Shown: piece after piece, positions 1,709-57,564 of the stretch | Numbering within the stretch: the first letter of the stretch is position 1 | How the letters are laid out: the number at the start of each line of letters is the position of its first letter | Source of the DNA: Nanobdellota archaeon | GTDB taxonomy: Archaea; Nanobdellota; Nanobdellia; Woesearchaeales; GW2011-AR4 | Length of the DNA stretch: 64,000 nt | Reading direction: 5' to 3' | NCBI GenBank assembly: GCA_038046385.1 | Contig: JBBSWH010000009.1 | Span: 32,001 to 96,000, forward strand | Made by a program: the position numbers and the translations under genes | Notes under the pieces: generated by a model | Database searches by the model: none | What the model was told of the DNA's origin: nothing | The model's input: the letters and a program-made list of their open reading frames with translations, nothing else

Positions 1709-4261
1709 ATGAAAATCAAGATTATTCATATTATTCTTGCAATTTATCTTACAGCCATCTCAATAGTTACAAAAAACGCAAAACTTGCCCCGTGGGTATT
1801 TTTAATAATAACCTTTGTAATTTTCTATTTTCTGGGAAAAAATAAGGTATTCACTTCAATTGAAAATCTGCTGTACATCTTAATTGCGCTGACCCCTTTT
1901 TTGCATCTGCTGCTGTTATTTATTATATATCTTCCATTCGCTGTATTCGGGCTCCTGACACACAAAAAAAGTTTCCTGAAGAACTATATTTTTGGATTTG
2001 GAATATCCTACATTCCGTCTATATTTATCTATCTCATATCTACCTACCTTTCAATCCCGTTAAATCTTATCTCCATACTGGCTATTTTTTACATATTGCC
2101 GATAATGGGGATTTTTGCATTAAAGAAAATCCCGATAGAGGCTTTTGAGATAGACAATAAAGAAAGCATTTTCATTTTAATTATACTGTTTTTTACAATA
2201 TTCATAGCCATCGGAATAGTGGATAATGAAAGACTGTTCATCTCCAACAGTGTTAGGGAGTTTTCAAGGCTCCAGCCTGCTGTTGAGGGACTGGAATCCG
2301 ACGGTCTGATTCCAATCTATAATCCAGGCACGGGGCAGGGGGATGCAACTTACTTATGGCTCCCTCCAGGGCATATTTCACATTTCTTCACATCAAATTT
2401 CCTGCTCAAAGATTTTTTCCCTAGCATCTTATTCTTTAATGCCTATTCTGTATTCATCTTGCTGCTCTCAACACTATCATTAGGCCTGCTTTTTGAGCCC
2501 ATCCTTAACAGGGATAAGTCAACTTTAAGCTGGCTGGCTATAACTTCCATATCCCTTATTGTAGGGCTTAATTTTTATTTCATCCAGAAATTAGAGTCCA
2601 TCAAGGAGTTCTCCGCATTTCCGCTTGCTTATTTAACATTAAGCATGATTCTTTACAATCCTAAAAAATTCAATGATTTTTTCTTTTTGATGTTTTTTTC
2701 CCTAATTTTAATTACAATACATTCTGCATACGGAACTGAGATTATTGTGCTTTCCTTTTGGCTGTTTTTATTCACAAAAATTTATTATGTAAGGGACAGA
2801 AGCGAACCAAAACTTTTTTTTAAATGGGCCATCTCCAATAAAATCAGGATTTTGGCTACCCTAGCAATAATATCGCTATTGCCTCTTTTTTACATCTTAA
2901 ACGGGGTTATCTACAAGGATTTTATCGTAGCCTCTCAGGAAGACAGCTTTAGCATTCTCGGCATAAAAGAAAATTTTATCGGATACACTAAGAATTACTA
3001 TGAGGATCATCTGCATTTCCTTTCCTTGAGTTACCCGGATGTCACCAGAAATGATGACCATAAAAGCGGTTTTTTCCCTTTAGTTTTAGGCACGATGTCT
3101 CTTTTTTTCTTAATTATCATGTATAAGCGAAGCGACACAAAAAATTTCAGAATATTTGCATTTGCAGCTTTATTTCAGGTATTAACTTTTGCATTGTTTT
3201 TAAATAAATACAGCTACCGTTTCGGAGGGCTTTTCAGGACAGCCAAGCCGCTTTTGATTATCCTGTTAGGGGCATCTATTCTTGTTTTCATGTACTCGTT
3301 TAAAAATAAATATTTAAAGGCAGTTTTCATAGCGATTACGTTTGCTGCATTCCTGCATACGGTCCCTTACGCTAAAGATAACCTCAGCAACATCCACCGG
3401 GAATTTTTTATGAGCGGAACTGTATATCAAGACGAAATGAATTTTATCAGCCTGCTGCCTAAAGACGGGAGGATAATAACTTATGGCGTCTTTGGCAATG
3501 CAATAGATTATGGCGGAAACCAGCTCACCGGCAGATACTTCTCCAGAGAAGACTGGGAAGTATTTGAATACCATAACAGAAATATATACAACACAAAAAT
3601 ACACAGTGCAAATTCATTTGGCCAGGCTGATATTGTCTTCAATAAATCCGCTGTAGAACTTCATAATTATCTAAGGCTCGGGGGCTATGGATATATTTTT
3701 GCAAATGTGTGCCATCCGGCCGGCAATTTTATAGCCAGCAGACTTTATCCTGATTTTTCCCGGGTTATTTACCAAAACCAGCAGAATAAGTGCATGGTAA
3801 TATTTACCGTTAACGGCGTTAATTATATCGAAAAAGTAAACATCTTAAAAGATGTGAACGACGATGTATACAAGAGCAGAGACGGGTATAAATATTTCAC
3901 GCTAAACAAGCACTATGATTTTGGAGATGATATTCCTTATTCCACAAAAGCTGCAGAACCAGCCGGACTCAATTTCACAAGGGACAAACCTGCAGAAGTC
4001 AAAATTTATGGGAATTTCAACGACAATGAATGGGTATCCTTTAAGGAAACTTATTGGCCAAGATGGAAAGCGTACATGAATAACAATGAAGTGCCGATTT
4101 ATGCCGACAATAACGAGCAAATCCTGATTAGGACAGTTAAAGGAAACAGCCTGCTTCTCAAATATTCCATTCTTCCGATTGAAAAAAATTTTGGTATTTT
4201 ATCGGCTATTGGATTTTTAGGCTTGAGCGTCTTTTTGCTGCTCCTGCTGAAAAAACAATAA
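1709..4261 (+). CDS. Large polytopic membrane protein, GT-C-like, with a YfhO-like C-terminal domain
   Basis: 850 aa with many TM helices, a luminal loop containing YLWLPPG, and C-terminal ETYWPRWKAY followed by a final TM helix, as in YfhO-type proteins. Confidence 0.6.
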   Translation: MKIKIIHIILAIYLTAISIVTKNAKLAPWVFLIITFVIFYFLGKNKVFTSIENLLYILIALTPFLHLLLLFIIYLPFAVFGLLTHKKSFLKNYIFGFGISYIPSIFIYLISTYLSIPLNLISILAIFYILPIMGIFALKKIPIEAFEIDNKESIFILIILFFTIFIAIGIVDNERLFISNSVREFSRLQPAVEGLESDGLIPIYNPGTGQGDATYLWLPPGHISHFFTSNFLLKDFFPSILFFNAYSVFILLLSTLSLGLLFEPILNRDKSTLSWLAITSISLIVGLNFYFIQKLESIKEFSAFPLAYLTLSMILYNPKKFNDFFFLMFFSLILITIHSAYGTEIIVLSFWLFLFTKIYYVRDRSEPKLFFKWAISNKIRILATLAIISLLPLFYILNGVIYKDFIVASQEDSFSILGIKENFIGYTKNYYEDHLHFLSLSYPDVTRNDDHKSGFFPLVLGTMSLFFLIIMYKRSDTKNFRIFAFAALFQVLTFALFLNKYSYRFGGLFRTAKPLLIILLGASILVFMYSFKNKYLKAVFIAITFAAFLHTVPYAKDNLSNIHREFFMSGTVYQDEMNFISLLPKDGRIITYGVFGNAIDYGGNQLTGRYFSREDWEVFEYHNRNIYNTKIHSANSFGQADIVFNKSAVELHNYLRLGGYGYIFANVCHPAGNFIASRLYPDFSRVIYQNQQNKCMVIFTVNGVNYIEKVNILKDVNDDVYKSRDGYKYFTLNKHYDFGDDIPYSTKAAEPAGLNFTRDKPAEVKIYGNFNDNEWVSFKETYWPRWKAYMNNNEVPIYADNNEQILIRTVKGNSLLLKYSILPIEKNFGILSAIGFLGLSVFLLLLLKKQ

Positions 4262-4292
4262 TCTTTTAAAGATTTTAGTTTTTTTGATTCTT

Positions 4293-4985
4293 ATGGTTAA
4301 ACTCTCAATACTGATTCCGGCTTATAATGAAGAGAAAACAATAGGCATGATTCTGGATAAAGTCAAGGGAGTCAAGCTTAATGGAATAACCAAAGAGATA
4401 ATTGTAGTTGACAATGCATCTACCGACAAAACATTTGACATTCTAAAAAAATATTCACGAAAAGGCGTAAAGGTCATAAGGCACAGTAAGAACATGGGCA
4501 AAGGGACGTCCATAAGAACCGCTTTAAGCCACGCAACCGGCGACATAATCCTGGTGCAGGATGCGGACCTTGAGTATGATCCAAAAGACTATCCAAAGCT
4601 TATAAAACCAATAATAGAACACAAAGCAAAGGTTGTTTACGGCTCAAGGCTGCTTGGCAGGGACAATAAGTATACGAGATTTGCCTATTATGTCGGAGGA
4701 GTTTCTCTAACGAAATTTTTTAGCCTGCTGTACCAAAAAAATGTAAGCGACGTGTGCTGCGGCTATAAGGTATTCAGCTCCGATGTCATCAAAAACATCA
4801 GGCTCGAGTGCAAAGAATTTGAATTCGACTGCGAGGTTACTGCAAAAATTTCCAAAAAGGGAATCAGGGTATGCAATATCCCAATTTCTTACATTCCAAG
4901 ATCCAGGGAAGAAGGGAAAAAAATAAATTTTAATGATTGGATGAAGTCAGTTTATGTAATGCTGAAATACAGGTTTAAAAATTGA
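4293..4985 (+). CDS. GT2 glycosyltransferase (DPM1-like)
   Basis: LIPAYNEE, DNASTD, QDADLEYDP and REEGKKI motifs. Paralog of 949..1644 and 57639..58334. ATG 4293 follows TTTTAAA at 4264-4270. Confidence 0.9.
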   Translation: MVKLSILIPAYNEEKTIGMILDKVKGVKLNGITKEIIVVDNASTDKTFDILKKYSRKGVKVIRHSKNMGKGTSIRTALSHATGDIILVQDADLEYDPKDYPKLIKPIIEHKAKVVYGSRLLGRDNKYTRFAYYVGGVSLTKFFSLLYQKNVSDVCCGYKVFSSDVIKNIRLECKEFEFDCEVTAKISKKGIRVCNIPISYIPRSREEGKKINFNDWMKSVYVMLKYRFKN

Positions 4986-7330
4986 CTCATTTTAACGAAA
5001 TGTTTTCAAAAATAAAAGCCAGAACAATTGAAAATAAAAATGACATTTTTGCCCTTTTGGCAATATTCATAATTTCCATTTTCTTTTTTCACAATTTTCT
5101 TGGAGCAGAAACCCTGATGCTTAACGGGCATTACCTTCATGAGCAGACATTTTTCAGCTATAATTACCTAGCCGCACACGAAAAAGGAGCATTGCCTTTC
5201 TGGACACCGTATTGGTACAGCGGACAGCCGTTTTTTGCGGACAGCCAGGTTTTTTTCCTTAACTTAACCCACATTTTCATAATTTTGTTCGGAAACATTT
5301 TCCTGTCGATAAACCTGTCGTCGCTGATTTATTTTTTTATCAGCGGCGCCGGAATGTATTTCCTTGTAAGGCATTTGACAAATTACAGGAGCGCAGCATT
5401 TGTATCGGCAATAATATACATGTTCAACGGGCTTATAAACGGATTTATTGTTTCCGGAAACCCAAGCATACTGGAGCCATATTCACTTATCCCTTTTATC
5501 TTTCTTTCAATAATCAAGGCAAAGAAAGCGCAGAACCCTATAAATTACTCCATAATTGCAGGAACACTGCTGGCATTTCAGGTGTTTTCAGGCGGAGCGC
5601 TGATGCTCGTTTATACTTTCCTGATTATATTCCCTTATCTTGCATTTGATGCGATAAGCCAAGGCATTAAATCCAAAATAGCAAAATCTGCGATTATAGC
5701 ATGCACCATGGTTCTGATATTATTCGGATTATCTGCTGTAAAACTTCTTCCAAATATGGATTTTATAAAAGAGACTAACAGGTCAAATGGATTGTCTTAT
5801 CAGGAATACCTTGGAGAAGATGTTTTTGTTTTCAAGGACTTTTTCAAAATTTTTGTGCTCACAGGCTACACATCAAGCCTTAAAATACATCTGGGTTTTG
5901 CTGCCTTTATACTTGTCATATCCTCATTTTTTTTCATAAGAAAAAGGATAGTGCTTTATTTTTTATCCCTGTCAGTTTTCCTTGCCATTCTTGCCAGCGG
6001 CGGCTTTCTGGCAGAGATATTCTTCAAGTATGTGCCTGAATTTTCAAAGACAAGGCATATTGCAAGGGTTCTTTTTGCCGTGGCATTTTCAGCTTCAATT
6101 CTTGCAGGATATGGGTTTCTTTTTATTTCAAACTTTATCAAAGGCAAATTCAAATTTAATGGCTTTACAAAGAAAACCCTCTTTTTTATCTTATGTATCA
6201 TAATTCTTGTTGAATTGATTATTCCCAACGGAATTCCAAATGGATTCAACATAAACAACGAGCTTGAGCAGAATGAGCTTGCAAAATATCTGCAGCAGGA
6301 GCGGGAAAAAACACCTTTTAGGATAACAACTTTTGATATAGATGACATAATATCCTTCTACGGCAGCAGCTATTACGCCCAATACGGGCTTGAGACTCTT
6401 TCTGGAGGGGGGGGCTTATGGATTGACGATTTCGTAAGGTACCTTTCCATAGCAAAAAACACAAACAAATCCAAACTACTCGGAATACTGAATTTAAAAT
6501 ATGCAACATCAACAAAAGAAGCTGATTTTTTAGGATTTAGCGAAGCAAAAAAATTCAATGAATGCGCGCCATGCAAGGAAAATGACTGGACAAGCTGGAT
6601 AGGCGGCCCATATCTCTATGAAAACAAAAATTTTCTGCCAAGATATTATTTTGTCAACAATTCAATATTAATAGTGGGGGACATGAATCAAGCCCGAGAT
6701 ATAACCTACAATTTGCTCCTCAGCAGAAAATTTGACCCCAAAAAAGCGATAATAGTGCAAGGAAACGGAAAAATAAGCGATTATAATGTAGAACTGCTAA
6801 AAAAATTCAATGCAATAGTGCTGCTTCAGGGGTCTGTAGATTCAAACTCCCTCCCTATCCTGGATCAGTACAAAAAATCAGGAGGAAAAATATTTCCAGA
6901 TATACTTGAAAATAAAAATTCAGTTGAAACTTCAGAAATTGAAAACCTTATGGAATCATTCAAGGGAGAAGTCAAAGAAGTGGAATTCAATTCAATATCG
7001 CCAAACGAGATAGAACTGCATCCAAAAAACAAGGGATTCCTAGTAATGAGCGAAAAATATTCACTTTTTGATGAATGGCGCGCAACTAAAGACGGCCAAA
7101 ATGTAGAAATTCTGAGGGCAGACAATGTTATAAGCGCAGTTTATGCGGATGGGCCAGGGGCAATTAATTTTAAATTCACACCTAAATCATTTTGGAAAGG
7201 CGCAATAATCTCCATGGCAACTGCAATTCTGATTGCCGCATATTTTATATCTCATTTCATAATAACCAACAGGAGAAAAAATAAATCCAGAGTCAACGCT
7301 CTGCAACAAGCACGCCCTGATAATCCTTGA
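4982..7330 (+). CDS. YfhO-family / GT-C membrane glycosyltransferase
   Basis: LPFWTPYWYSGQPFFAD N-terminal loop, many TM helices, LPRYYFV, and C-terminal SPNEIEL...LVMSEKY...WRA...LRAD plus TM. The true start may be ATG 5000. Confidence 0.75.
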   Translation: MTHFNEMFSKIKARTIENKNDIFALLAIFIISIFFFHNFLGAETLMLNGHYLHEQTFFSYNYLAAHEKGALPFWTPYWYSGQPFFADSQVFFLNLTHIFIILFGNIFLSINLSSLIYFFISGAGMYFLVRHLTNYRSAAFVSAIIYMFNGLINGFIVSGNPSILEPYSLIPFIFLSIIKAKKAQNPINYSIIAGTLLAFQVFSGGALMLVYTFLIIFPYLAFDAISQGIKSKIAKSAIIACTMVLILFGLSAVKLLPNMDFIKETNRSNGLSYQEYLGEDVFVFKDFFKIFVLTGYTSSLKIHLGFAAFILVISSFFFIRKRIVLYFLSLSVFLAILASGGFLAEIFFKYVPEFSKTRHIARVLFAVAFSASILAGYGFLFISNFIKGKFKFNGFTKKTLFFILCIIILVELIIPNGIPNGFNINNELEQNELAKYLQQEREKTPFRITTFDIDDIISFYGSSYYAQYGLETLSGGGGLWIDDFVRYLSIAKNTNKSKLLGILNLKYATSTKEADFLGFSEAKKFNECAPCKENDWTSWIGGPYLYENKNFLPRYYFVNNSILIVGDMNQARDITYNLLLSRKFDPKKAIIVQGNGKISDYNVELLKKFNAIVLLQGSVDSNSLPILDQYKKSGGKIFPDILENKNSVETSEIENLMESFKGEVKEVEFNSISPNEIELHPKNKGFLVMSEKYSLFDEWRATKDGQNVEILRADNVISAVYADGPGAINFKFTPKSFWKGAIISMATAILIAAYFISHFIITNRRKNKSRVNALQQARPDNP

Positions 7331-8105: not shown

Positions 8106-8204
8106 TTAATCATGTTAAACAGTCCAATTTATTAAATTTTTTATTGTTATGCGGCAAAACAGCGTTTGGAAAATTTAATAAACAGGCAAATGCCACATTG
8201 GAAA

Positions 8205-9839
8205 ATGAACATAGAAAAGCCGTACCTGCTGCTGTTTTTTGGCTTAATGCTTTTTCTTGGAGTCTCAAATCTTATGGACCATAGGGTTCAGCATGATTTT
8301 CCATATGCCTATCTGGCTTCAGATACATTCCAGCAGCAGACAAGGGCAGATGGGATAGCAGACGCAGGCAACTACAGGAATGAACCATTTTATATTGTCA
8401 AGGGTTTCAAGGATGTAGTGGGGTATTACCCTCCTTTGGTGCACCATCTTGGCGTCCTCTTGCATTTTACAACCGGCATTCCAGCATACGATACAGTCTA
8501 TTTTATGGTTTTTTTCAGTGCCATATTAGCGGCTTTTGTGATGTATATTATAATAAGGAGCTACAACAAGAATATTGCAATACTTTCTTTGCCGCTGTCA
8601 ATACTCATATTCTCCGATAAGTCTTATATAGGCTTCGTATGGGGCCACTGGGCATCAATAACCGGCCAGCTGTTCCTGCTTTGCATATTCTGGTCAATAA
8701 CAAGATTTGACATTGCAAAATCAGAAGCCCTTCTCGGGATATTCATGGGATCCCTTGCACTTGCTCACACTTCCGAATTAATTTACGGCATTGCTTTTGT
8801 CGGGCTTTATGGTGTTTGGCTTTTATCAAACAAAAAACTCAATACTAAATTTTTCAAAAAGACAATAATTGCTGCAGTAATTGCAATTGTTATATCGGCA
8901 TACAGCCTTTACATATTCTACAACAGTTTTATGGTTGTGAATCCCTATACATTCGAAGTATCAAAGTACTGGGGAGGGACGCCAATATTTGAAATAACAG
9001 ACTTCAGCTTGCTTTTGATTTTTATGGTTATAGGGCTGATAGCCGGCATTTTAATGATAAAAAAAATAGATGTTCCTGTGCTGGCAGGAATATTCATGCT
9101 GCTTGTAGGATACACAAATTATATCGGCTTTGGGATAAGGGCATTCCAGCCAAGGCTTTTCTGGCCGATTTATTTTTCAATTTTCCTTGGGATAGGGCTG
9201 CATACGCTGGTAAAATACATGCCATTCAATTCAAAGGCAATCCTTGCATTTTGCTTAAGCGCATTTTTTGTATTGGCAATTTCCAACACTATTTCAATAC
9301 CAAATATCCCGACATATTCAAAATTGTCAAACCCCGGGATTATGGACACTTGGCACTGGCAGATGTTTCAGTGGATAAGCAAAAATACAGATACAGATTC
9401 AAAAATATACTTTTTTTATGGAGACATTTACGGCCAGGATGCAATTCTCAGAAACTCCAAGAGGCTGCACGTTCAGGTCATACCTGATGACTTTATTGCG
9501 GCTCTTCAAAACAGGACAGTAAAAAGAGTGTACTGGACAGAAGCGCCAGCAGACCATGGTGCAGGATTCCCGCACTTCAGCCCGTTTCCAAAGATAAAAC
9601 TATATTTAAAAGAAGACACAGACTACTGGCTTTTGAAATCCCCAAATATAGACATATGCAAGTTTGACTATCTTGTATTTGACAGGGCGACAAGGCAGGA
9701 AGTGCTTGCGCAATACAACCTAGTCATAGCAAACCAGATGATGAAAAAAGATGCACAAGTGGTATTTCAGAACGAAGTTTCAATAATATTAAAAAATAAT
9801 AAGGTCAACGGCGACTGCATTGAAGAGGGGACTTTTTAG
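8205..9839 (+). CDS. GT-C-like polytopic membrane protein (paralog of 13831..15447 and 55753..57564)
   Basis: PYAYLASDTFQQ...YYPPLVHH luminal loop, VWGHW and many TM helices. Start chosen at ATG 8205, about 25 nt after TTTAATAA. Confidence 0.6.
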   Translation: MNIEKPYLLLFFGLMLFLGVSNLMDHRVQHDFPYAYLASDTFQQQTRADGIADAGNYRNEPFYIVKGFKDVVGYYPPLVHHLGVLLHFTTGIPAYDTVYFMVFFSAILAAFVMYIIIRSYNKNIAILSLPLSILIFSDKSYIGFVWGHWASITGQLFLLCIFWSITRFDIAKSEALLGIFMGSLALAHTSELIYGIAFVGLYGVWLLSNKKLNTKFFKKTIIAAVIAIVISAYSLYIFYNSFMVVNPYTFEVSKYWGGTPIFEITDFSLLLIFMVIGLIAGILMIKKIDVPVLAGIFMLLVGYTNYIGFGIRAFQPRLFWPIYFSIFLGIGLHTLVKYMPFNSKAILAFCLSAFFVLAISNTISIPNIPTYSKLSNPGIMDTWHWQMFQWISKNTDTDSKIYFFYGDIYGQDAILRNSKRLHVQVIPDDFIAALQNRTVKRVYWTEAPADHGAGFPHFSPFPKIKLYLKEDTDYWLLKSPNIDICKFDYLVFDRATRQEVLAQYNLVIANQMMKKDAQVVFQNEVSIILKNNKVNGDCIEEGTF

Positions 9840-9840
9840 A

Positions 9841-10221
9841 ATGAACGAAGAAACAATGAACAAACTGAAGAAAGAATCAGCTTACCTTGCAATCACATTT
9901 GCAGCATTCCTGATGATCTTTAAGATTGCTTTCTACAATGAAAGCGCTTTCAATGCCGTTAAAATAACTGCATCCATATTCTGGATGTTTGTGCTGCCTG
10001 GGTTCTTGATTATGTTTTACTGGCATGAAAACCTTGAATTCATCGAAAGGCTTGTGATAGGGACTGCACTCGGGCTTGGCATAATGGGGTCTGCAAGCTA
10101 TTACCTTGGGTTGATTGGCCTTAATATAAACCACCAAACCATACTGCTGCCGCTTAGCTTTATAGTGATAGGATTATTGACAAGCATCAGAAGTAAAAAT
10201 TTTAACAATCAGCAAAAATGA
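9841..10221 (+). CDS. Small multi-TM membrane protein (DUF1616-like), partner of the upstream GT-C-like gene
   Basis: FVLPGFLI...LEFIERLVIGTALGLG motif. 1-nt gap after the upstream stop; overlaps the downstream start. Confidence 0.6.
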   Translation: MNEETMNKLKKESAYLAITFAAFLMIFKIAFYNESAFNAVKITASIFWMFVLPGFLIMFYWHENLEFIERLVIGTALGLGIMGSASYYLGLIGLNINHQTILLPLSFIVIGLLTSIRSKNFNNQQK

Positions 10222-11825
10222 CAAAAAAATCCAAAAAAATCCTCCGAAGCACTGAATTTAAGATATTTTTGACAGCATGGATTGTTTATGCATTTTACTT
10301 ACAGATGTATGGCAGCAGCTGCATGGCAAACTCCCAGTCTGCCCTCACTGCAGCAATTGTAAACGAGGGAAGATTGCAGATAGACACATACCAAAAAGTC
10401 AGCTGCGATATATCTTTTTATAATGGCCATTATTACTCAGGCCAGCCACCAGGGATATCTTTTATTTCAGCGCCGCTCTACATTGCGGCCAAGCCGGCTT
10501 TTAGCCTAATACCGGACAGCACCATCGACTCACTTTATCAAAAACTCGAGAATTATGGAGATAAGCTGCCTCCTGATTATTGGGGAAATAAAAAAACCAT
10601 ATCCAGCTATTTTTCCAGCCTAAGCAAAAGGCAAATACTGGAATATCTTTTTATTTCCGGATTTATTCTGCCTCTGTTCACAACTGCATTAATCAGCGCG
10701 CTGTCTGTTGCTGTATTCTACATGTTCATAAAAAACTTCACAAAAAAAGAATATTTAAGGCTGCTTTCCACAGCACTTTATGCTTTCGGCACAATAGGCT
10801 TTCACCTGTCAACATTATTTTTTGAAAGGCCAATTGCCATAGCAGTATTCTTTATGGCTTTTTTTATCATATTCAGAATAAGGCACGGCCAGCTAAATCC
10901 AAATTTAACTATGCTATTTTTGACAGGGCTGCTTGCAGGCTCATCTGCGGCATTTGACTATTTTCATGCGCTTGCATTGCCGCTGCTGGCTGTTTATTTG
11001 GCGTTATTCTTCACAGAATACAAAAAATCCAAAGACGGCGGCATAAAAAAACTTTTCAGCATCAGAATTTCCAAGCCAAACATATCCCTAATTCTGGCTT
11101 TTGCCATAGGGATGTCAATACCCCTATTGATGCTCGGGTGGTACCATTACGCAACATTCGACAGCCCATTTGCAATTTCTTATTCGCACAGGATTGTTGA
11201 AACAAGCGACGCAAAAATTTCCGACATAGCCAATGCAAAACTTCCAGCCATGTCTACAATATATTATGTACTTGAATTTTTTCTGAATTCTCCAATAATG
11301 ATTCTTGCAATTCTTGCCCCATATGCAGCTCTGAGGAGAAAAGACATGTTTTTTTATGATTTTGCCTTTATTGGAATACTAATAGCCGCTTCTTTTGTTT
11401 TTGCTTTGGCGCTGGCTCTGGTTTACCCGACTGTCGCCCCTCAATTTAACAGGCACATGACTCCAATAATACCTTACTGCTTTTTGGCTCTGCCTTATCT
11501 TATTCCCCAAAAAAAGAACAATAAAAGCAGAAGAATGCTGAGGATTATTGTAGCTATAGGGATTTTATCAATATTCTTCAACTGGATAAACACAATGTAC
11601 GAAGATGCGGATAATTTTGACTTAAGAAACAAAAGAGCCGATTTTCTACCTTATTTTTTCAGCCATGGCCCATCATCCCCTTTTACTTCAGCGCTATCAG
11701 GCATATTCAGAATAAACAACCTAATCTTAAACTTAGCAGGGCTTGCCGCACTTGTATGTATCCTTCTCTTCATATGGAAACGCCACTGGAATTTGAAATA
11801 TTTTATGAATACAAAAAAGCAATAA
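10218..11825 (+). CDS. GT-C-like polytopic membrane protein
   Basis: DISFYNGHYYSGQPPG luminal motif, many TM helices and RHMTP. Confidence 0.6.
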   Translation: MTKKSKKILRSTEFKIFLTAWIVYAFYLQMYGSSCMANSQSALTAAIVNEGRLQIDTYQKVSCDISFYNGHYYSGQPPGISFISAPLYIAAKPAFSLIPDSTIDSLYQKLENYGDKLPPDYWGNKKTISSYFSSLSKRQILEYLFISGFILPLFTTALISALSVAVFYMFIKNFTKKEYLRLLSTALYAFGTIGFHLSTLFFERPIAIAVFFMAFFIIFRIRHGQLNPNLTMLFLTGLLAGSSAAFDYFHALALPLLAVYLALFFTEYKKSKDGGIKKLFSIRISKPNISLILAFAIGMSIPLLMLGWYHYATFDSPFAISYSHRIVETSDAKISDIANAKLPAMSTIYYVLEFFLNSPIMILAILAPYAALRRKDMFFYDFAFIGILIAASFVFALALALVYPTVAPQFNRHMTPIIPYCFLALPYLIPQKKNNKSRRMLRIIVAIGILSIFFNWINTMYEDADNFDLRNKRADFLPYFFSHGPSSPFTSALSGIFRINNLILNLAGLAALVCILLFIWKRHWNLKYFMNTKKQ

Positions 11826-19736: not shown

Positions 19737-21398
19737 TTAGTTTCTGATTACTTTATAGATATAAACCTCATCTTTGCGTTTTGGATCTTCCTCATCGTAA
19801 AATTGGCTATAATCTTCTTGGATAGTCGCAATAAGCTTGAATTTGTCAGGGTTGTTTTTAACATATTCTACAGTTTCAAGCTTATAACGGCTTTTTTGGC
19901 CGTAAGTGTAGTAGTATCCGAATATGTAATAGCTTACATTATAATATTCAATCATGTAATCTAATTTAGCCGGATCCGGATAAGATCCTACAAGTTTATT
20001 GTCTGTCAGGTAGATTAATTTTACTTCATACCCCTGAAAGCCCATCAACACCGCTTTACTGTCGATATTTTTGTTTATATAATCTATAGTATTCTTGGAT
20101 GTCGGATAGACATCATTAAAAAAAACAAAGTGCGGATTATTTAAAATCCAGAATGGCACCAGCATTAACAGCAAAACAGCTATTACTGCAATAATCTTAT
20201 CTATCTTTTTGCTTAATCCTAATTTATTTAATAGCAAAAATAATCCAAGGGCAAGCAGATAATAAAAAGTTATATAGGAGATATACAAATATCTTGGAGA
20301 GATATAGGAAGCCTGGAACAGCGGGATAATAAATATGCTAAAGATTCCAAGCACATATAAATTGCCGTTATTATGGATTTTTCTTTTTCGGATAAAACTA
20401 AAAACTAGGTGAAAGATTCCGTAAGATACTATTAATGCAAGCGGCAGGTAAACCAAAAACATATAGGCAATATGGAACGGGTGCAAGAGATACTTCATTG
20501 AACTGAAATTAAGCCCGAGAGGTATGGGGACCGGCTGCAAATTAAAGAGGTATCCAAAATTAAATGCCAATCTTTTAACTGTCGGAACAGTCCCCTCAGG
20601 GAAATCAAAAGAAGAGCTAAAGTCCTTAAAAAATCCAGGGTAGGTTGCAGATAGCAAGCTTAGGTCATCGGTTTTTATCGGAGTTCCGCCTGGGCCGTTT
20701 GGATAGTATTCATATTGGGAATACTGATAGTATTTTACAAGAATCCATGAGCCAAAAAATAATGATGTCACTATTAATGGAAGGATTGCATAAGCTATGC
20801 TCGTCTTTTTATTTCTAAAGAACAGGTAGGACAATACAAATGCCGGAAAAAGGAAAAGGGTGTGGTCTGTGGTTATTCCCACCAAGCCGCCAAACAACGA
20901 AGAGGCGACAATTGATTTGTGATTGTTGAATTTAAGCCCCTTAACATAATAATATAGGGCCGACATTATCAGCATAATGGCAAAAGACTCCATTAATACC
21001 TGGGTAGAAGCGATTATCAACGGCACAGATAATGTATAGAATACCAATACCATAAAAGTCAGGTTAAAATTATCAGTCAGCATCATAAAAAATTTATACA
21101 AAACAAAGAACAGGATTACTGAAGAAAGAAAACTGACCAGCATAGCTGCTGTATAGTCCTGCGGAACAAAAAAATCAAATATATGTATGGCATACGGATA
21201 TAAAGGCGAATGAAGCAGGTACATCTGATCGTTGTATAATTTATGATAAGGAAACTGCTTTGCAGTTTCCAGCCATTTATAATTATCAGACCCAAACAAA
21301 AAAGTAGGGAAATCCACAAACAATCTCAGAAGAACAAATACCAGAAATAATGCAATAAGAAGGTTTCTTTTACTATAAAATGCAGATAATCTTTTCAT
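19737..21398 (-). CDS. GT-C (PMT/ArnT-like) membrane glycosyltransferase
   Basis: LR..D...GSDNY...HSPLY N-terminal loop, QVLMES and PRYL, with multiple TM helices. Confidence 0.65.
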   Translation of the reverse strand: MKRLSAFYSKRNLLIALFLVFVLLRLFVDFPTFLFGSDNYKWLETAKQFPYHKLYNDQMYLLHSPLYPYAIHIFDFFVPQDYTAAMLVSFLSSVILFFVLYKFFMMLTDNFNLTFMVLVFYTLSVPLIIASTQVLMESFAIMLIMSALYYYVKGLKFNNHKSIVASSLFGGLVGITTDHTLFLFPAFVLSYLFFRNKKTSIAYAILPLIVTSLFFGSWILVKYYQYSQYEYYPNGPGGTPIKTDDLSLLSATYPGFFKDFSSSFDFPEGTVPTVKRLAFNFGYLFNLQPVPIPLGLNFSSMKYLLHPFHIAYMFLVYLPLALIVSYGIFHLVFSFIRKRKIHNNGNLYVLGIFSIFIIPLFQASYISPRYLYISYITFYYLLALGLFLLLNKLGLSKKIDKIIAVIAVLLLMLVPFWILNNPHFVFFNDVYPTSKNTIDYINKNIDSKAVLMGFQGYEVKLIYLTDNKLVGSYPDPAKLDYMIEYYNVSYYIFGYYYTYGQKSRYKLETVEYVKNNPDKFKLIATIQEDYSQFYDEEDPKRKDEVYIYKVIRN

Positions 21399-40138: not shown

Positions 40139-41313
40139 AAATAAGCGTTTCCGGCTTGGGAAAGGCAGGATTGCCATTGGCTGCGGTTATTGCAGATGCA
40201 GGAATTGATGTTATCGGAATAGATGTTGATGTTAAAAGGGTTGCCGACATTAACAATGGAGTTAATCCAATACCGGAAGAAACCGGATTATCTTCTTTAA
40301 TTAAGAAATACGGCGGGAAGAGATTAAAGGCAACTACAAATGCTGCCGATGCTGTAAAGGAAACTTCTGCCCATATTGTGATTGTTCCTTTGTTTATTGA
40401 TTCCGCGAAGAAATGCGATTTTTCTTTGTTACAGAAGGCTTTTACTGATATTGGAAACTCTCTTAAGAAGAATGATGTTGTTGTGCTTGAAACAACTGTT
40501 CCGGTTGGGACAACAGAGACTTTTGTGAAAGGGATACTTGAGAAAGAGTCTGGACTTAAATGTGGTTCTGATTTTTACCTTGCATATTCTCCTGAGAGGA
40601 TAATGACGGGATATTCTATTTCACGCTTTAAGGAATTTCCAAAATTGGTTGGAGGGGTTGATGCTAAAAGTTCGCAAAAGGCATTTGAAGTTTATTCAAA
40701 GTTTGCAAACCCTGTCAAGGTTAGTAATTCAAGAACAGCAGAGCTTGCGAAAGTATCTGAAGGCGTTTATCGCGATGTCAATATTGCTTTAGCCAATGAA
40801 TTGCTTAAAGTTGCTGAACATTATTCAATAGACTTCTGGGAGATGAAAGAGGCTGCAAATCACCAGTTTTGCAACATACACGAGCCAGGGAATGTCGGAG
40901 GGCATTGTATTCCAGTCTATCCGTGGTTTTTAATTAATTCACTTGATGTTCCACTGATTAAAGTTGCACGCAAACTGAATGATGATATGATTGAATTCTA
41001 TGCTGGCAAGGTTGCTGCAATTGGTGGGAAGAAAGTCGGAGTGATTGGACTAAGCTACAGGGAAGGCGTCAAGGAAAAGGCATATTCACGCTCTGTTGAC
41101 ATGATTAAACTGCTTCAGAAGAAAGGATATGATGTTTATGGGTATGATCTGCTTTATTCTGCAGAAGAAACTTTGAAAGAGTTCGGCTGCAAGTATCTTG
41201 ATGACTTTGGAAAGATGGATGTTTTGATACTGATGAACAAGGAAGTTTCTTTGAAAAGCAAATTACTTAAGATGAAGGATAAGGTTGTTGATGTGAAGAA
41301 TGTTTTAAGATGA
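40135..41313 (+). CDS. Nucleotide-sugar dehydrogenase (WbpA-like)
   Basis: GLGKAGLP, LETTVPVG, YSPER and VGGHCIPVYP motifs. Confidence 0.9.
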   Translation: MKISVSGLGKAGLPLAAVIADAGIDVIGIDVDVKRVADINNGVNPIPEETGLSSLIKKYGGKRLKATTNAADAVKETSAHIVIVPLFIDSAKKCDFSLLQKAFTDIGNSLKKNDVVVLETTVPVGTTETFVKGILEKESGLKCGSDFYLAYSPERIMTGYSISRFKEFPKLVGGVDAKSSQKAFEVYSKFANPVKVSNSRTAELAKVSEGVYRDVNIALANELLKVAEHYSIDFWEMKEAANHQFCNIHEPGNVGGHCIPVYPWFLINSLDVPLIKVARKLNDDMIEFYAGKVAAIGGKKVGVIGLSYREGVKEKAYSRSVDMIKLLQKKGYDVYGYDLLYSAEETLKEFGCKYLDDFGKMDVLILMNKEVSLKSKLLKMKDKVVDVKNVLR

Positions 41314-41317
41314 AACA

Positions 41318-43072
41318 TTAATCAATAAGTTTACGATAAGCTTCATTTATTTTTCTAAATCTACTATCTGCCAAAATTTGAAATTGTTTATCTAAGTGGT
41401 TTACTTTATCTGGGTGATTTAAGCTAGCCAATTTTTTATAAGCAGATGTAATCTCTTCTTTGCTAGAATTTTTTAGAATTCCTAAAATTTCGAAAGGGTC
41501 GGTTATGGAATTACCTCCTAGTTCTTCTATATGCGGTTGATGAATACCTAATATTTTTAATTCTTCAATTCCCGATTTCCAATTCATATGTTGACTTTTT
41601 TTGTGCAATTTTTCGTGTTGTTTATGAGTTATAATTGCTAAATTAGATAAATCATAATTTGAAATATCTTTATCTACGTGGTGCACAACCAAGTCCTCAA
41701 AACTTTTTCCAGGATAATGCTTGTTAAACCACCTGGAGTAAAAGTCAAATATTTCTTTTTTTGCTAGATATTTATGAATTTCAGTATCTGTTTTTACTGT
41801 ATATATCCCATTTTCATCTTTGTTAACAAAACAGGGATAATATGCATTCTTTATATTTGGATTTCTCCATTCCCAAAAACCTCTAGTAGGACTAGGCCTT
41901 GGTACAGTCAAATCTTTAATTTTTTCTTTAGATTCCAACAATTCTTTTTCCCGTTCAGCAATATCTTTTCTTTCAGATTCTATTTTTTCTTTCATTTCTT
42001 GTGTCTTATCTAAATTACTCCTTGCTTCGGTTAACATACTTTTTGAATCAGATAGTTGTCTTTTTTTATCTTCTAAAGCCTCCTCCTGAAATTTAATATT
42101 TTGAACCAATATGTTTTGTTTTTTTACTAATTCGTTATGGGATTTCTCGTGACGTTTTTTTGCATCTTCATATTCTTTTTTTGCAGCTTCTCTAGCTTTC
42201 TTTCTTTGTATTGCTTCTCTTTCCATCCATCTTTTTTTATTTTTATAGTTGTACAACCATATTAAGGATATTATGAGAATAATAAGAAGTACCACAAAAG
42301 CAATACCTAATATTGTTTTAGTTCTTTCTCGTTTTATTTTTTCTGCCTCAATCTGTGTTGGAGACTTAGCACACCTACCACTATCATCGGTAAAATTAGT
42401 TTTACATTCAATAGGGCCACAAAATGGGATATCTCCTTCAGGCAGATTATTGTATACACATCTATTATTTTTACATTGAATCATATCCCATCTTTCACAT
42501 CTACAATTATCTAAATAACATTCTGGTTTATTGTTGCAGATTTTCTCAACACAAAACCCCCCACCACACTCCTCTTTTGTGGAACATTCAGCACCATCAT
42601 CTAGACAAGATACACCATTGCATACTTTACATACATCCCTTTTTTTTGTTACATTTATTTCTTTAGGAACCAAAAATTTTGGTTCGGATAGATAATAAGT
42701 GATATTATCTTTTTTTATGCTACATTCTCCATAAACATTATCTTTAAAACATATTTCATTTATTTTATCATAATCTTTAGCTTTAATTCTTGATGAAGAA
42801 GTTGATACATCAGAAATAAAACCTTCTATACTATAAGTAATAAATGCTTTTATTTCGTATGGATTAGGGTTAAACACCGTAAAAATGCTTTTATTATTCA
42901 CACTTATAAAATCTGAAAATACCAATGCGTCTGCAATCTTTACTGAAGAATCTTGATACGTTAGTGCTATCTCTAGTTGTTGATATTCTTCTTGTAGATT
43001 ATATTGACAAGCAAAAGAACCAGTTGATAAAAGTAACAGTATCAACAAACCAATAATTATCAGTTTACTCAT
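41318..43072 (-). CDS. Membrane-anchored multidomain protein: signal peptide, Cys-rich ectodomain, TM helix, coiled coil, HNH nuclease and C-terminal J-domain
   Basis: MSKLIIIGLLILLLLSTGSFA signal; Cys cluster; ILGIAFVVLLIILIISLIWLY TM; VHHVDKDISNYDLSNL...HEKLH HNH motif; DPFEILG...AYKKLA..NHPDKV...F..INEAY J-domain. Confidence 0.8.
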   Translation of the reverse strand: MSKLIIIGLLILLLLSTGSFACQYNLQEEYQQLEIALTYQDSSVKIADALVFSDFISVNNKSIFTVFNPNPYEIKAFITYSIEGFISDVSTSSSRIKAKDYDKINEICFKDNVYGECSIKKDNITYYLSEPKFLVPKEINVTKKRDVCKVCNGVSCLDDGAECSTKEECGGGFCVEKICNNKPECYLDNCRCERWDMIQCKNNRCVYNNLPEGDIPFCGPIECKTNFTDDSGRCAKSPTQIEAEKIKRERTKTILGIAFVVLLIILIISLIWLYNYKNKKRWMEREAIQRKKAREAAKKEYEDAKKRHEKSHNELVKKQNILVQNIKFQEEALEDKKRQLSDSKSMLTEARSNLDKTQEMKEKIESERKDIAEREKELLESKEKIKDLTVPRPSPTRGFWEWRNPNIKNAYYPCFVNKDENGIYTVKTDTEIHKYLAKKEIFDFYSRWFNKHYPGKSFEDLVVHHVDKDISNYDLSNLAIITHKQHEKLHKKSQHMNWKSGIEELKILGIHQPHIEELGGNSITDPFEILGILKNSSKEEITSAYKKLASLNHPDKVNHLDKQFQILADSRFRKINEAYRKLID

Positions 43073-43178
43073 TATTATTCATAACCCCCAACACCAAATC
43101 TCGATAAACACTATTTAAACTTTGCCAATAGAACCTCCTTCCATAAGCTTTTTAAAGCATTAAATAGAGCGTTATTAT

Positions 43179-44132
43179 ATGAAAATAAAGGGAAAGAAGC
43201 TGTTCATCACAGGCGGAGCTGGATTCATTGCAAGCCATTTAATCGAACGCTTGATAGATGACAATGAAATCATCGTTTACGACACGATGCACAGGAATGC
43301 GCTGCAATACACTGACCTTCAAAAGCACAAGAATCTCAAGATAATAAAAGGCGATGTTCTGGATCAAGAGCAATTAGAAAAGTCATTAGGAAATTCTGAT
43401 ACTGTTATCCACATGGCGTCAATTGCAGGAGTTTCAACTGTTGTCGAGCATCCAGCCTTGACATTAAAGATAAACTTGATTGGAACTTATAATCTTCTCG
43501 AGGCGTGCAGGAAAAAAGGAATAAAAAGGTTCATTTCATTCTCCACAAGCGAAGTTTACGGCCCAAATATATACCAGGCTGATGAAAACGGATTTACAAC
43601 AATAGGCGCAGTAGGCCAGCCAAGATGGACATATGCCATGTCAAAATTGGCAGGCGAGTTTATGGCTTACAGCTACTTCAAGGAGCACGGGATAAGGTTT
43701 ACAAGCTTAAGGCCGTTTAATGTCTATGGCCCAAGGCAGGTTGGGGAAGGCGCAATCCACAATTTCATTGTTAAAGCCGTAAATGGTGAGCCATTGACAG
43801 TCCACGAGCCTGGCTCGCAAGTAAGGTCATGGTGCTACATAACGGATATGGTAGATGCAATAGAATCAGTTTTGACAACAAAAGAATCTGAAGGGGAAGT
43901 TTTCAACATAGGAACGCCGCAGGCGACTTCAACAACGCTGCAGACAGCTGAAACTGTTATAAGGCTTGCAAATTCAAAATCAAAGATAGAATTCAAGGAG
44001 ATAAAATACCCTGATGTTGAGATAAGGGTTCCAAGCATAAAGAAGGCAGAAAGAATTCTCAATTTTAAGCCAAAAGTGGGCTTTGAAGAAGGCATAAAGA
44101 ATACAATCGAGTGGTATAAAAAGCAAAAATGA
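43179..44132 (+). CDS. NAD-dependent epimerase/dehydratase (UDP-glucuronate decarboxylase-like SDR)
   Basis: TGGAGFIAS, FSTSEVYG, RWTYAMSK and RPFNVYGP motifs. Confidence 0.88.
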   Translation: MKIKGKKLFITGGAGFIASHLIERLIDDNEIIVYDTMHRNALQYTDLQKHKNLKIIKGDVLDQEQLEKSLGNSDTVIHMASIAGVSTVVEHPALTLKINLIGTYNLLEACRKKGIKRFISFSTSEVYGPNIYQADENGFTTIGAVGQPRWTYAMSKLAGEFMAYSYFKEHGIRFTSLRPFNVYGPRQVGEGAIHNFIVKAVNGEPLTVHEPGSQVRSWCYITDMVDAIESVLTTKESEGEVFNIGTPQATSTTLQTAETVIRLANSKSKIEFKEIKYPDVEIRVPSIKKAERILNFKPKVGFEEGIKNTIEWYKKQK

Positions 44133-55752: not shown

Positions 55753-57564
55753 TCAAACTTTGAGTATTACTGCCCCATTATTCTGGAACACTGGCCTGTA
55801 CAAGCCTGACTCGCCAAACCCTTTTAGCTTGCTGTTTGTTTCTTCCGCGCCAAAATATTTCATGGTTTGCCCGTCTATTATAATATATTCATAAGAATGC
55901 GATTTCAGCCAATCGTGTGTCTGTTGCGCACTCTGGTTAAATCCGGTTTTCATATAACTCCGTATATCCTGGCACCAATGGCAGTTGTACATGTCCATGC
56001 CTATGATAGGGCCGTCGTTCCAGTATGTAAAAACCTGCGAGTTTTTCGGAAGATTCTGATACATCCATATGTACGCACCTACCTCCTCTCCTGAAGTCCA
56101 GAAAGCGCCAGGAGGCCACTGTGCTGTGTTAACTGCAATCTTCTGCTGGCCCGATGTAAAATACACGCCAACAATAATCAAAATTAATAAAATATATTTT
56201 CCAGCATTTCCAGATATTTTTTTTGCAATGCCCATGATGCCTGAAGCGCCTTCTGCTGCCAGCATGCAGACAGGAATAGCAAGCAGCATCCAGGCCCTGA
56301 AAGGCGAGATTTTTATTGGAAGCTTTGTTGCATTGACAGCATAAAAGGTAAGTATAAACCATGCAAGAACAACAGCAAGCCAGTATTTTTCATCCCCTTT
56401 GGCTGACAGCTTTAAAAACAGGAAAACAAGGCCAATTATCGTTAGAATTGACAAAACAAACCCTATTCCCACAGGGTTATTTATCATATTTTGGCTCTGG
56501 GCAAAAAGAAAATCTCTGACAGTATAAACCCTGTCGCCGGTTCCGCCCACGCTAAATGCCCCGGTCCCTGCGCTCACAAGGATTCCAAGCCCCTTTAAAG
56601 TTCCGAAAAACCCATGCTGCTTTATCATTGGCAGCCACCAAAATGCAAATGAAACAGCAACTCCCATGATTCCGGCCAGCCACTCATAAAGGGCAAGTTT
56701 TCTCTGGGATATCATTTTCGCAGCAATGTAAAACACAAAAAATAATCCAAAGTAAGTGCTGTGGGTGGGAGTTGCAGTGAACGGAGTTGCCATAACCAAT
56801 CCGGCTATTATCCACCATTTTTTGTCGTGCTTGATTCTTTCAAGAGCATAAAAGGCAACAAAATACAGCGGAACTGCAATGGAAATTGCCCATATGAAAT
56901 GCGACATGAATGCGGGTATTGAAACAAGCGCAAATGCAGCAAACAATGCCTTGTCTTTGCTCCCTGAAATTTCTTTTACAAAAAAGTAGAAGAAAATTGT
57001 GCTAAGCGATATAATCAGGGCATTGAAGAATTTGATAGTCCAGTAAACAGAGTCGTTTGTCTGGTGCAGAATGCCAAGCAATATATCATAAGTTGGAGGG
57101 TATGGGTTTATGTAACTGACATAATCGGTTTCTTTGTCAAAGACATTAAGATTCATTGAAACATACTTGACTCCGAATGCGTGGGCCCACGAATCGTCGT
57201 CTTCAAGGTAAGGGTAGCTGAAGGCGCCGGACATATAAACATACAAATTCACTGCAAATAAAAGAAGCATTGCAAAAATGTAAAGGTCACTTTTGGTCAA
57301 TTTAACTGAAAAACTGAAATTTTTATAATTCTTTATAAGATAATAGGCAGGATAGGCTGCGCTCAGCAAAAAAATTATTCTCCAGTCTGCAGGTATTCTT
57401 ATTATATTGAGGATAATCCCAAGAAATGGCATGAAAGAAAGCCCGAAACCGAGCCTCATTAGGTTCCTTTCCAGAAAATTGTCTGAATTTTTTGCAAATG
57501 CTGACAACGTAAAACCTAGCAAAAATGTGCAGGCAAAGAACAATGCTATTGTTAAAAGATACAT
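55753..57564 (-). CDS. GT-C-like polytopic membrane protein with a fused N-terminal small-TM module
   Basis: N-terminal FLLGF...NFLERNLMRLGFGLS resembles the 9841/13515 proteins, followed by YPYLEDDDSWAHA...PYPP as in the 8205/13831 proteins. Confidence 0.62.
   Translation of the reverse strand: MYLLTIALFFACTFLLGFTLSAFAKNSDNFLERNLMRLGFGLSFMPFLGIILNIIRIPADWRIIFLLSAAYPAYYLIKNYKNFSFSVKLTKSDLYIFAMLLLFAVNLYVYMSGAFSYPYLEDDDSWAHAFGVKYVSMNLNVFDKETDYVSYINPYPPTYDILLGILHQTNDSVYWTIKFFNALIISLSTIFFYFFVKEISGSKDKALFAAFALVSIPAFMSHFIWAISIAVPLYFVAFYALERIKHDKKWWIIAGLVMATPFTATPTHSTYFGLFFVFYIAAKMISQRKLALYEWLAGIMGVAVSFAFWWLPMIKQHGFFGTLKGLGILVSAGTGAFSVGGTGDRVYTVRDFLFAQSQNMINNPVGIGFVLSILTIIGLVFLFLKLSAKGDEKYWLAVVLAWFILTFYAVNATKLPIKISPFRAWMLLAIPVCMLAAEGASGIMGIAKKISGNAGKYILLILIIVGVYFTSGQQKIAVNTAQWPPGAFWTSGEEVGAYIWMYQNLPKNSQVFTYWNDGPIIGMDMYNCHWCQDIRSYMKTGFNQSAQQTHDWLKSHSYEYIIIDGQTMKYFGAEETNSKLKGFGESGLYRPVFQNNGAVILKV

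Follow-up and report, generated by a model that had tools for sequence, protein, structure and literature searches.

A window of 64,000 nucleotides from the genome of a small groundwater archaeon (G000:C9:32001-96000; genome of 1.28 Mb in 19 contigs, 85% complete), by which we mean the whole stretch of DNA that was analysed, contains a gene for a 584-residue protein that runs from a signal peptide through a beta-sandwich, a Cys-rich stalk, a transmembrane (TM) helix and a long helix to an HNH_3-type module and a J-domain with the His-Pro-Asp (HPD) motif. This gene, here termed the membrane-HNH gene, is real and not an assembly chimera, and its composition and flanks indicate that it is a recent, horizontally acquired single-gene insertion. 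We tentatively propose, at a probability of roughly 45%, that its product is a membrane-tethered conflict nuclease that would work in the manner of SNIPE and Zorya II without being a member of either, and to which the chaperone DnaK would be recruited as a regulator. A role in conflict or defence is indirectly favoured because the gene was gained horizontally at a site that is empty in same-genus genomes, because its family is patchy and partly pseudogenised, because conflict and mobile genetic element (MGE) genes lie near its relatives more often than at control loci, because four relatives possess a ribbon-helix-helix (RHH) partner gene, and because the HNH residues are conserved and the distal ectodomain evolves fast.

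Anatomy of the membrane-HNH protein

A preliminary description of this DNA had proposed that all of these domains form one protein, and they do lie within a single intact open reading frame (ORF), as judged from the 584-residue frame itself, Pfam and AlphaFold2 (AF2) modelling (Table 1). The signal peptide, Cys-rich ectodomain and single TM helix that it named are likewise supported by hydropathy and by the distribution of cysteines, 18 of the 19 lying between the signal-like segment (residues 4-22) and the TM helix (253-271). The AF2 model of the full protein (8 rows) is confident solely for the beta-sandwich (residues 25-148), for which a fold search with the full-length model returned only generic Ig-like or beta-sandwich matches, and it contains a single long helix (238-389) with a break at residues 330-336. 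This charged helix bears out the coiled coil proposed earlier in kind but not in length, which is about 115 residues instead of about 100. The ectodomain is predicted to lie outside the cell because it follows a signal peptide and has many cysteines, and the HNH and J parts are predicted to be cytoplasmic because a K/R-rich stretch follows the TM helix and because the J-domain needs cytosolic DnaK.

The HNH module is made up of a beta-hairpin (WEWRNP..YYPCFVN), helices, the HNH core and a C-terminal tail (SGIEELK..PHIEEL). The claim of a complete HNH motif proved correct: the motif, VVHHVDKDISNYDLSNLAIITHKQHEKLH, begins at H464 and provides the full HH..N..NL..H...H pattern, Pfam HNH_3 (PF13392) is matched marginally above its cut-off at residues 459-487 (E 1.6e-5), and the PHROGs HNH endonuclease family phrog_15471 is matched at E 5.8e-7. 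In alignments of 35 and 46 rows, H464, H465, N477 and L478 are invariant and D467, N472 and H486 are conserved in at least 90%. The AF2 model of residues 390-584 (46 rows) is confident throughout (mean predicted local distance difference test, pLDDT, of 92; predicted template modelling score, pTM, of 0.79) and places at the motif a strand (model residues 73-76, VVHH), a second strand (89-92, LAII) and a helix (94-98), all with pLDDT above 90; this beta-beta-alpha order is the arrangement expected for an HNH core. HNH_3 is also matched by 7 of 9 close relatives at E<=0.01, with members of the family reaching E 3.7e-14. Weak matches to viral HNH structures (E 0.02-0.07) were obtained from a viral structure library, and the HH..NL..H...H pattern aligned weakly with that of the pyocin AP41 DNase (E 0.25 and 0.12). 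Apart from AP41 at E 0.12, a profile search of PDB sequences returned TM and coiled-coil noise, and a structure search of the ESM Atlas gave no usable match. The HNH_3 module looks like an active nuclease.

The J-domain is recognized by Pfam DnaJ (PF00226) at residues 525-584 (E 2e-12; 47.4 bits vs. a cut-off of 27.8), its fold agrees with solved J-domains over 57-63 residues (Z score 8.0-8.9, root-mean-square deviation 1.2-1.7), and Foldseek assigns it a probability of 1.0, including against the DnaK-bound J-domain 5nro_B. Of the DjlA-like J-domain with HPD that had been described before, the domain and its HPD (starting at residue 553) are thus upheld, whereas the kinship with DjlA is not. 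Both the DnaJ and the DjlA models of NCBIfam match the J-domain part only, far under their cut-offs, and membership in DjlA (NF006948) was rejected at 33.7 bits vs. an equivalog cut-off of 162. A DnaK is encoded in the same genome as one 648-residue frame on contig C1 (HSP70 match, E 1.6e-207), together with a DnaJ of 386 residues on the same contig. The genome has a third J-protein, a 196-residue open frame (L007, G000:C11:83653-83805) separate from the DnaJ on C1.

The possibility that the domains had been joined by a chimeric assembly, which had been set down for checking, is dismissed by contigs from other studies' runs. These bridge both junctions without difference, at 41113-41788 for the 3' junction, including the J and HNH parts, and at 42826-43400 and 42878-43355 for the 5' junction. 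A single contig covers 41000-43400, and its run may itself be the source of the analysed DNA. The same architecture, J-domain included, is found in the independently assembled relatives P0002-P0007 (39-64% identity over 98-100% of the length), L019 and P0014. On its 5' side the gene faces 106 nt of divergent intergenic DNA with no ORF upstream there, and the TATA-like box previously noted at about 43112-43119 holds as a sequence match, since TTTAAATA is by sequence a perfect archaeal-type box 40-47 nt before the ATG. Among the listed data sets no RNA set contains the gene.

Table 1. Coordinates of the membrane-HNH gene and its parts in the window, and of the RHH genes at relatives' loci.
Feature	Position	Strand	Basis or remark
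Whole ORF, 584 residues and stop codon	41318..43072	-	Starts with ATG, uninterrupted
Signal peptide, residues 1-21 (hydrophobic 4-22, then A/CQY)	43010..43072	-	Hydropathy
N-terminal beta-sandwich ectodomain, residues 22-147	42632..43009	-	AF2 pLDDT 85-93
Cys-rich stalk, residues 148-235, family-invariant Cys	42368..42631	-	35-row alignment; AF2 confidence low here
TM helix, about residues 250-272, then K/R-rich stretch	42257..42325	-	Hydropathy peak 253-271
Charged long helix or coiled coil, residues 273-389	41906..42256	-	AF2 helix 238-329 and 337-389
HNH module, predicted cytoplasmic, residues 390-522	41507..41905	-	Alignments; AF2 pLDDT about 90-97
HNH core, residues 459-490 (H464, H465, D467, N472, N477, L478, H486, H490)	41603..41698	-	Pfam HNH_3
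J-domain, residues 523-584 (HPD 553-555, nt 41408-41416)	41321..41506	-	Pfam DnaJ, fold match
TATA-like box, TTTAAATA	43112..43119	-	Sequence match only; 40-47 nt upstream of ATG
G-rich stretch, 8-14 nt upstream of ATG		-	Read from sequence
Inserted segment relative to same-genus genomes, between UDP-sugar dehydrogenase and epimerase genes	41314..43148		Flank comparison
RHH/CopG gene	L081:9410-9718	-	
RHH/CopG gene	L082:9311-9613	-	
RHH/CopG gene	L083:7198-7503	+	
RHH/CopG gene	L089:6739-7044	+	

Horizontal gain and a patchy archaeal family

The window is one very large surface-glycan island of glycosyltransferases, sugar dehydrogenases, epimerases, aminotransferases, two sulfatases and PMT_2 proteins, and every flanking ORF with a Pfam family is a glycan-pathway enzyme. 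That the membrane-HNH gene is the only non-glycan gene in the window, as the preliminary description held, is accurate among the annotated ORFs but goes too far beyond them, as seven larger ORFs have no Pfam family. Large frames of this kind lie at 1709-4258, 4982-7327, 8166-9836, 10218-11822, 19740-21398 and 55756-57564. The suggestion that the gene is more AT-rich than its surroundings was confirmed by calculation against the 757 genomic ORFs of at least 200 residues: its G+C content (GC) is 29.5% vs. 39.0 +/- 3.2%, with 1.3% of ORFs as low, and its GC at third codon positions (GC3) is 18.7% vs. 38.4 +/- 5.5%, with 0.26% as low. Since the low GC3 is uniform over all four parts of the gene, it arrived as a unit. 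A DNA search with both flanks in 42 other same-genus genomes located an empty site in G634, where the flanks are 18 nt apart in the alignment and a stop codon is followed by about 41 nt and the epimerase ATG, and a similar empty site in G001. In G632 (L107, G632:C5:12500-16000) the junction holds a different cargo of 2.8 kb with three ORFs, judged by eye to be one group-1 glycosyltransferase-like gene, one methyltransferase-like gene and one 224-residue ORF of no recognized kind. The dehydrogenase-epimerase junction is a variable spot in the glycan island.

When 1.84 billion cluster representatives were searched with residues 385-522, the matches numbered 74 at E<=1e-3, of which 38 passed E<=1e-10 and 10 passed E<=1e-30. 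The full plan, namely a signal peptide, C-Q-Y, 14-32 cysteines, one TM helix and a C-terminal HNH module, is present in 38 of the 80 tabulated proteins, with a helical stretch after the TM helix that varies greatly in length across the family. Invariant in the 35-row alignment are eight cysteines together with Y412, V463, H464, H465, N477, L478 and G501; the invariant cysteines of the stalk are C148, C169, C179, C192, C205, C223 and C234, and the C22-Q-Y motif is likewise retained throughout the family. Compared with the window protein, relatives are 19-64% identical in the beta-sandwich, 45-78% in the Cys-rich stalk, 52-68% in the HNH module and, for the J-bearing rows only, 53-85% in the J-domain, so that the most distal part, being lowest in identity, evolves fastest.

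Behind the TM helix the family is modular. The C-terminal module comes in two subtypes, the one of the window protein and a GYHIHHIDGDKYNN..NLEEI..EH type that is closer to the canonical form and lacks the tail, and most members end directly after a conserved tail of the form SGI.ELKR.GIK.PHI.EL. A J-domain is restricted to P0001-P0007, P0011, P0014 and P0017, with the HPD kept in all J-bearing relatives tabulated, and most family members lack it. In a quick, poorly resolved tree the J-bearing rows form two groups inside one major clade, and the J-domain may have had a single origin in the family. P0008 carries no J-domain but a Myb-like tail (Pfam Myb_DNA-binding, E 2.8e-6), with which the tail of P0023 aligns, the latter giving no Pfam Myb match at E<=0.001. 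The DNA enzyme itself has been exchanged in the 1195-residue protein of L087 (G402:C13, 5583-9167, reverse strand), in which a signal peptide, Cys-rich ectodomain, TM helix and long helix are followed by a UvrD-type helicase that replaces the HNH module; a gene for a 153-residue PF01844 HNH protein and RecQ come next. Searches with residues 22-245 and with an ectodomain profile on longer proteins returned close relatives only, and other effector fusions of the ectodomain may exist unseen.

The distribution of the family is patchy. A locus search of genome contigs with P0001 alone found no relative. In the 36 other genomes of the genus nothing beyond a J-domain matches, and none of the 7 genomes of the organism's own taxonomic family matches. 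Among the genomes of the order, 33 of 401 match at E<=1e-8, a count that includes G000 itself and some HNH-only fragments; at E<=1e-15, 19 of 401 phylum genomes do so, all from the same order or class and including the unpublished genome G626, on which nothing else here depends. The members occur in Woesearchaeota-like metagenome-assembled genomes, which belong to the DPANN archaea. Six matches carry in-frame stops (G295, G282, G115, G314, G385 and G358; L052, L054, L060, L062, L067 and L069). The single stops are mostly TGA, and may reflect sequencing error, recoding or pseudogenes; the copy in G358 is heavily decayed, with nine stops. In IMG/VR viral contigs at least 23 loci match residues 417-545 or the J-domain only, with the ectodomain in none among the matches listed, and this lack of the full architecture is neutral for our proposal. 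A 16S rRNA gene was not found in the 85% complete genome G000. In these comparisons the family is confined to one class of DPANN archaea, patchy and sometimes pseudogenised; it would also seem to be undescribed.

Neighbourhoods, mechanism and competing explanations

Conflict and MGE genes recur in the Pfam annotation of 21 relatives' loci. L084 has PD-(D/E)XK, nucleotidyltransferases, AAA_21 with RloB, GmrSD-HNH and an EcoRI methylase as neighbours; L091 has type I restriction-modification and HEPN, and L085 Schlafen/AlbA_2. Tyrosine integrases neighbour L082 and L024, and DUF2779/Cas4-like genes L020 and L024, L020 having in addition an ORF6N anti-repressor and a HerA/FtsK-like ATPase; Bro-N (L086), MazE (L081) and PIN (L088) complete the conflict and mobile neighbours. 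A glycan-cluster setting is shared by the window gene, L089 and L093, and L019, L080, L090 and L094 have plain housekeeping neighbours. With a list of conflict/MGE families fixed before the count and neighbours taken within 5.5 kb, 8 of 15 relatives' loci were positive vs. 1 of 15 control loci (Fisher p 0.014), the sole control positive being a type I R subunit in L110. The controls were C1:10001-21000 of the same 15 genomes, one arbitrary choice of position, with the 10 longest ORFs per locus (145 ORFs). The preliminary description had asked for homologue neighbourhoods to be checked for defence genes, and the full count does show such an excess, but a stricter one that sets aside the three positives based on small ORFs yields 5 of 15 vs. 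1 of 15 (p 0.17); the bias is a moderate lean and no proof. Genes for SMC, ScpA, ScpB or GyrA neighbour 3 of 15 relatives' loci and 2 of 15 control loci, and a link to chromosome segregation was rejected because these neighbours are also present at controls.

In four relatives (L081, L082, L083 and L089) a gene of about 100 residues overlaps the start of the membrane-HNH gene. Its products are mutually homologous (41-57% identity), consist of an N-terminal RHH and a C-terminal extension, and match RHH_1/CopG in 4 of 4 cases (best E 6.2e-5) as well as the CopG antitoxin family, and the L081 protein is assigned to Arc-like repressors by PHROGs. Such an overlapping layout would fit a type II toxin-antitoxin pair or an autoregulated operon. 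In the window genome, which is 85% complete, no RHH homologue was found at E<=1. At L083 (G132:C6) the RHH and membrane-HNH pair lies between GyrA and ScpB, and the GyrA there (2079-7007, reverse strand, 1643 residues) contains intein splicing and LAGLIDADG domains. The GyrA and ScpB genes are close together in the control locus L109.

It seems reasonable to postulate that the protein works as a tethered nuclease along the following lines. As a type I single-pass protein it would hold its fast-evolving beta-sandwich on a disulfide-rich stalk outside the cell, where the variable distal domain would meet something external or merely position the protein at sites of entry, and its long helical stalk would keep the HNH_3 nuclease close under the membrane inside. 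Incoming DNA appears under the membrane and the chromosome would rarely do so; nucleic acid that enters there, from a virus or other mobile DNA, would be cut, or the cell would be killed on such a signal, and tethering would keep the nuclease off the chromosome. In the J-bearing subgroup the J-domain would bring the cell's DnaK to the nuclease module for restraint, activation by remodelling, or turnover. We take DnaK to be a regulatory add-on because other members use an RHH partner or nothing.

The sensor-effector with a DnaK-gated nuclease that had been suggested previously is close to this proposal, and its anatomy and predicted topology agree with what was found, as does the presence of a DnaK gene. 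Gating by DnaK does not survive as a core mechanism, because the J-domain is an add-on of one subgroup and is absent from most members. The stronger version, in which the protein is a single-chain immune receptor whose ectodomain would detect a virus or foreign cell, whose coiled coil would pass on the signal and whose HNH nuclease would, in the J-bearing subgroup, be released or restrained by Hsp70 at the site of entry, is considered unlikely.

A number of observations weigh against the tethered conflict nuclease itself. The HNH_3 score of the protein is barely at the Pfam cut-off (24.9 vs. 24.8 bits), the last His of the motif, H490, varies across the 35-row alignment, and no solved HNH structure significantly matched the 390-584 model, J-domains having filled the fold searches of the PDB. 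PADLOC identified no credible defence family, its matches being LeoBC on the coiled coil (3e-4) and a homing endonuclease (0.018), and neither the window copy nor its closest relative, L019, has defence or MGE neighbours. Besides the loss of significance on the stricter count, the control under-samples small toxin-antitoxin genes, since it takes only the 10 longest ORFs, and the 15 genomes are related and hence not independent.

Part of this evidence could be read in terms of a selfish or addictive element, that is, an HNH_3 enzyme of homing-endonuclease descent encoded by a toxin-antitoxin-like or homing-type gene that brings its host no defence benefit. The HNH_3 match and the PHROGs match to a phage HNH endonuclease would suit such an element, the viral structure matches being weak, and so would a one-gene insertion that falls precisely between two conserved genes and is missing from that site in kin, the RHH and HNH pair between GyrA and ScpB in L083 where the genes of L109 are close together, the overlapping RHH gene in 4 relatives and the frequent pseudogenisation of copies. 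The conservation in 38 proteins of a secreted ectodomain rich in disulfides, together with a TM helix and a long stalk, is nevertheless hard to square with a homing enzyme, because such an enzyme must reach chromosomal DNA, and the window genome has no RHH partner. We give this explanation a small chance.

Uptake of DNA or scavenging of nucleotides appears a less probable function still. According to this explanation the ectodomain would contact a host cell or free DNA and the nuclease would process imports for a symbiont with reduced biosynthesis. The small genome, its Woesearchaeota-like lineage, the HerA/FtsK-like ATPase that adjoins the L020 relative, and the fusion to UvrD helicase with RecQ nearby in L087 are all compatible with it. 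A nutritional core gene, however, should not be lacking in all 36 other genomes of the genus and in about 92-95% of the genomes searched in the order and phylum, nor would its recent insertion in this genome be expected, and no channel or competence genes were seen beside the annotated loci.

The protein might also be a non-catalytic tether or signalling device, in which an HNH-like module merely binds DNA and the whole either ties DNA to the membrane or acts as a membrane regulator whose release or control involves DnaK, much as DjlA signals to capsule genes. The DjlA of Escherichia coli, a J-protein of the membrane, influences capsule synthesis, and the membrane-HNH gene does lie inside glycan clusters in the window, L089 and L093. 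The Myb-like tail in place of the J-domain, by Pfam in P0008 and by alignment only in P0023, and the loss of the last His of the motif in some members would fit in with DNA binding. Pure binding would not require, on the other hand, that the HH pair, the Asn and the first helix His be kept in nearly all members; the SMC and Scp neighbours are matched at control loci, DjlA membership fails, and the gene was inserted into the glycan cluster and not inherited with it. We hold such a function to be distinctly improbable.

In a similar vein, the fast-evolving, Ig-like distal domain, a Cys-rich stalk of the sort typical of surface proteins, and the location within a surface-glycan island could all point to a factor for cell-cell interaction, the variable ectodomain serving the symbiont as an adhesin or as a module that recognizes its host cell and the cytoplasmic part being unrelated housekeeping. 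This would not explain why the ectodomain is strictly coupled to DNA enzymes, either HNH or UvrD, nor would it account for the RHH partner and the conflict-gene neighbourhoods, and we deem it very unlikely.

Relation to described systems and implications

SNIPE is a bacterial defence nuclease with DUF4041 and GIY-YIG domains that spans the membrane once. It cuts phage DNA as this is injected and is toxic when deprived of its TM helix, and its tethering has been proposed to keep the nuclease off the chromosome (bioRxiv 10.1101/2025.11.03.685801). It resembles what is predicted for the membrane-HNH protein in being a single-pass membrane protein with an elongated cytoplasmic part that ends in a nuclease, and in both the outward-facing N-terminal part, termed the 'adapter' in SNIPE, is the most variable (bioRxiv 10.1101/2025.11.03.685801). 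For the membrane-HNH protein, the single TM helix with a cytoplasmic nuclease is predicted from the signal peptide, the cysteines, the K/R stretch and the J-domain. The two differ in that SNIPE has a short periplasmic end, a GIY-YIG domain and a bacterial host, whereas the protein described here has a 230-residue ectodomain of beta-sandwich and Cys-rich stalk with a signal peptide, an HNH_3 module with a J-domain, and an archaeal (DPANN) host. Neither DUF4041 nor GIY-YIG was found in a Pfam scan of the 584-residue protein, even at E<=10.

In Zorya II the HNH nickase ZorE is brought to the membrane by the ZorAB complex, which is embedded there and has a long tail in the cytoplasm (PMC11890865). 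The likeness lies in a membrane part, a long helical stalk predicted to be cytoplasmic and an HNH nuclease that would act at the membrane, but Zorya II is made up of several genes, its MotAB-like motor is driven by ions and its nuclease is soluble and recruited, whereas here a single polypeptide has a single TM helix. PADLOC returned no Zor match, and the neighbours are sugar enzymes with no MotAB-like genes among them. A DnaJ has been linked to phage sensing in the case of the bacterial bNACHT25, the chaperone being there a separate host protein (PMC12169576).

With DjlA and the type III membrane J-proteins the membrane-HNH protein shares a membrane anchor and a C-terminal cytoplasmic J-domain with HPD, but DjlA has neither an ectodomain nor such a coiled coil nor a nuclease. 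The phage HNH_3 homing-type endonucleases share its HH-D-x4-N-x4-NL-x7-H core and its insertion between conserved genes, and relatives of subtype B match them strongly (HNH_3 E down to 3.7e-14, PHROG HNH E 8e-13). Those enzymes are, however, soluble, whereas the module is here the tail of a secreted, membrane-anchored protein, and both an N-terminal hairpin (WEWRNP..YYPCFVN) and a C-terminal tail (SGI.ELK..PHI.EL) are particular to the window subtype. The RHH gene of about 100 residues that overlaps the start of the HNH gene in 4 relatives recalls type II toxin-antitoxin systems of the RHH/CopG kind, from which the family departs in that the 'toxin' would be a membrane protein of 450-750 residues and in that neither the window gene nor its genome has a partner.

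The full-text literature, with subscription-only papers and supplements outside the scope of the search, yielded no description of a membrane protein with HNH and J-domain or of such a DPANN family, and none of a fusion of a J-domain to a nuclease. The preliminary view that the architecture had not been described is in agreement with this, the concept of a membrane-bound defence nuclease having already been published with SNIPE and Zorya II. On the basis of its sequence, the protein would represent a new, lineage-restricted form of membrane-bound nuclease, with an unusual receptor-like ectodomain and, in one subgroup, a J-domain.

DPANN archaea are mostly uncultured, and little is known of their defences or surface biology. 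In the family described here, which occurs in only one class of these archaea and moves horizontally, a single chain carries both a receptor-like ectodomain and, coupled directly to it, a DNA enzyme. AF2 models the predicted cytoplasmic fragment with confidence (pLDDT 92), and its small size brings it within reach of direct biochemistry. If the immune-receptor version were true, it would amount to a chaperone-gated immune nuclease and to a defence family specific to DPANN archaea. The fusion of J-domain and nuclease would give a direct handle on the regulation of an immune or toxic effector by Hsp70. If the family acts like SNIPE or Zorya II, spatial discrimination between self and non-self, by the cutting of DNA at its point of entry, would have arisen independently in archaea, with another nuclease and a large outward sensor.

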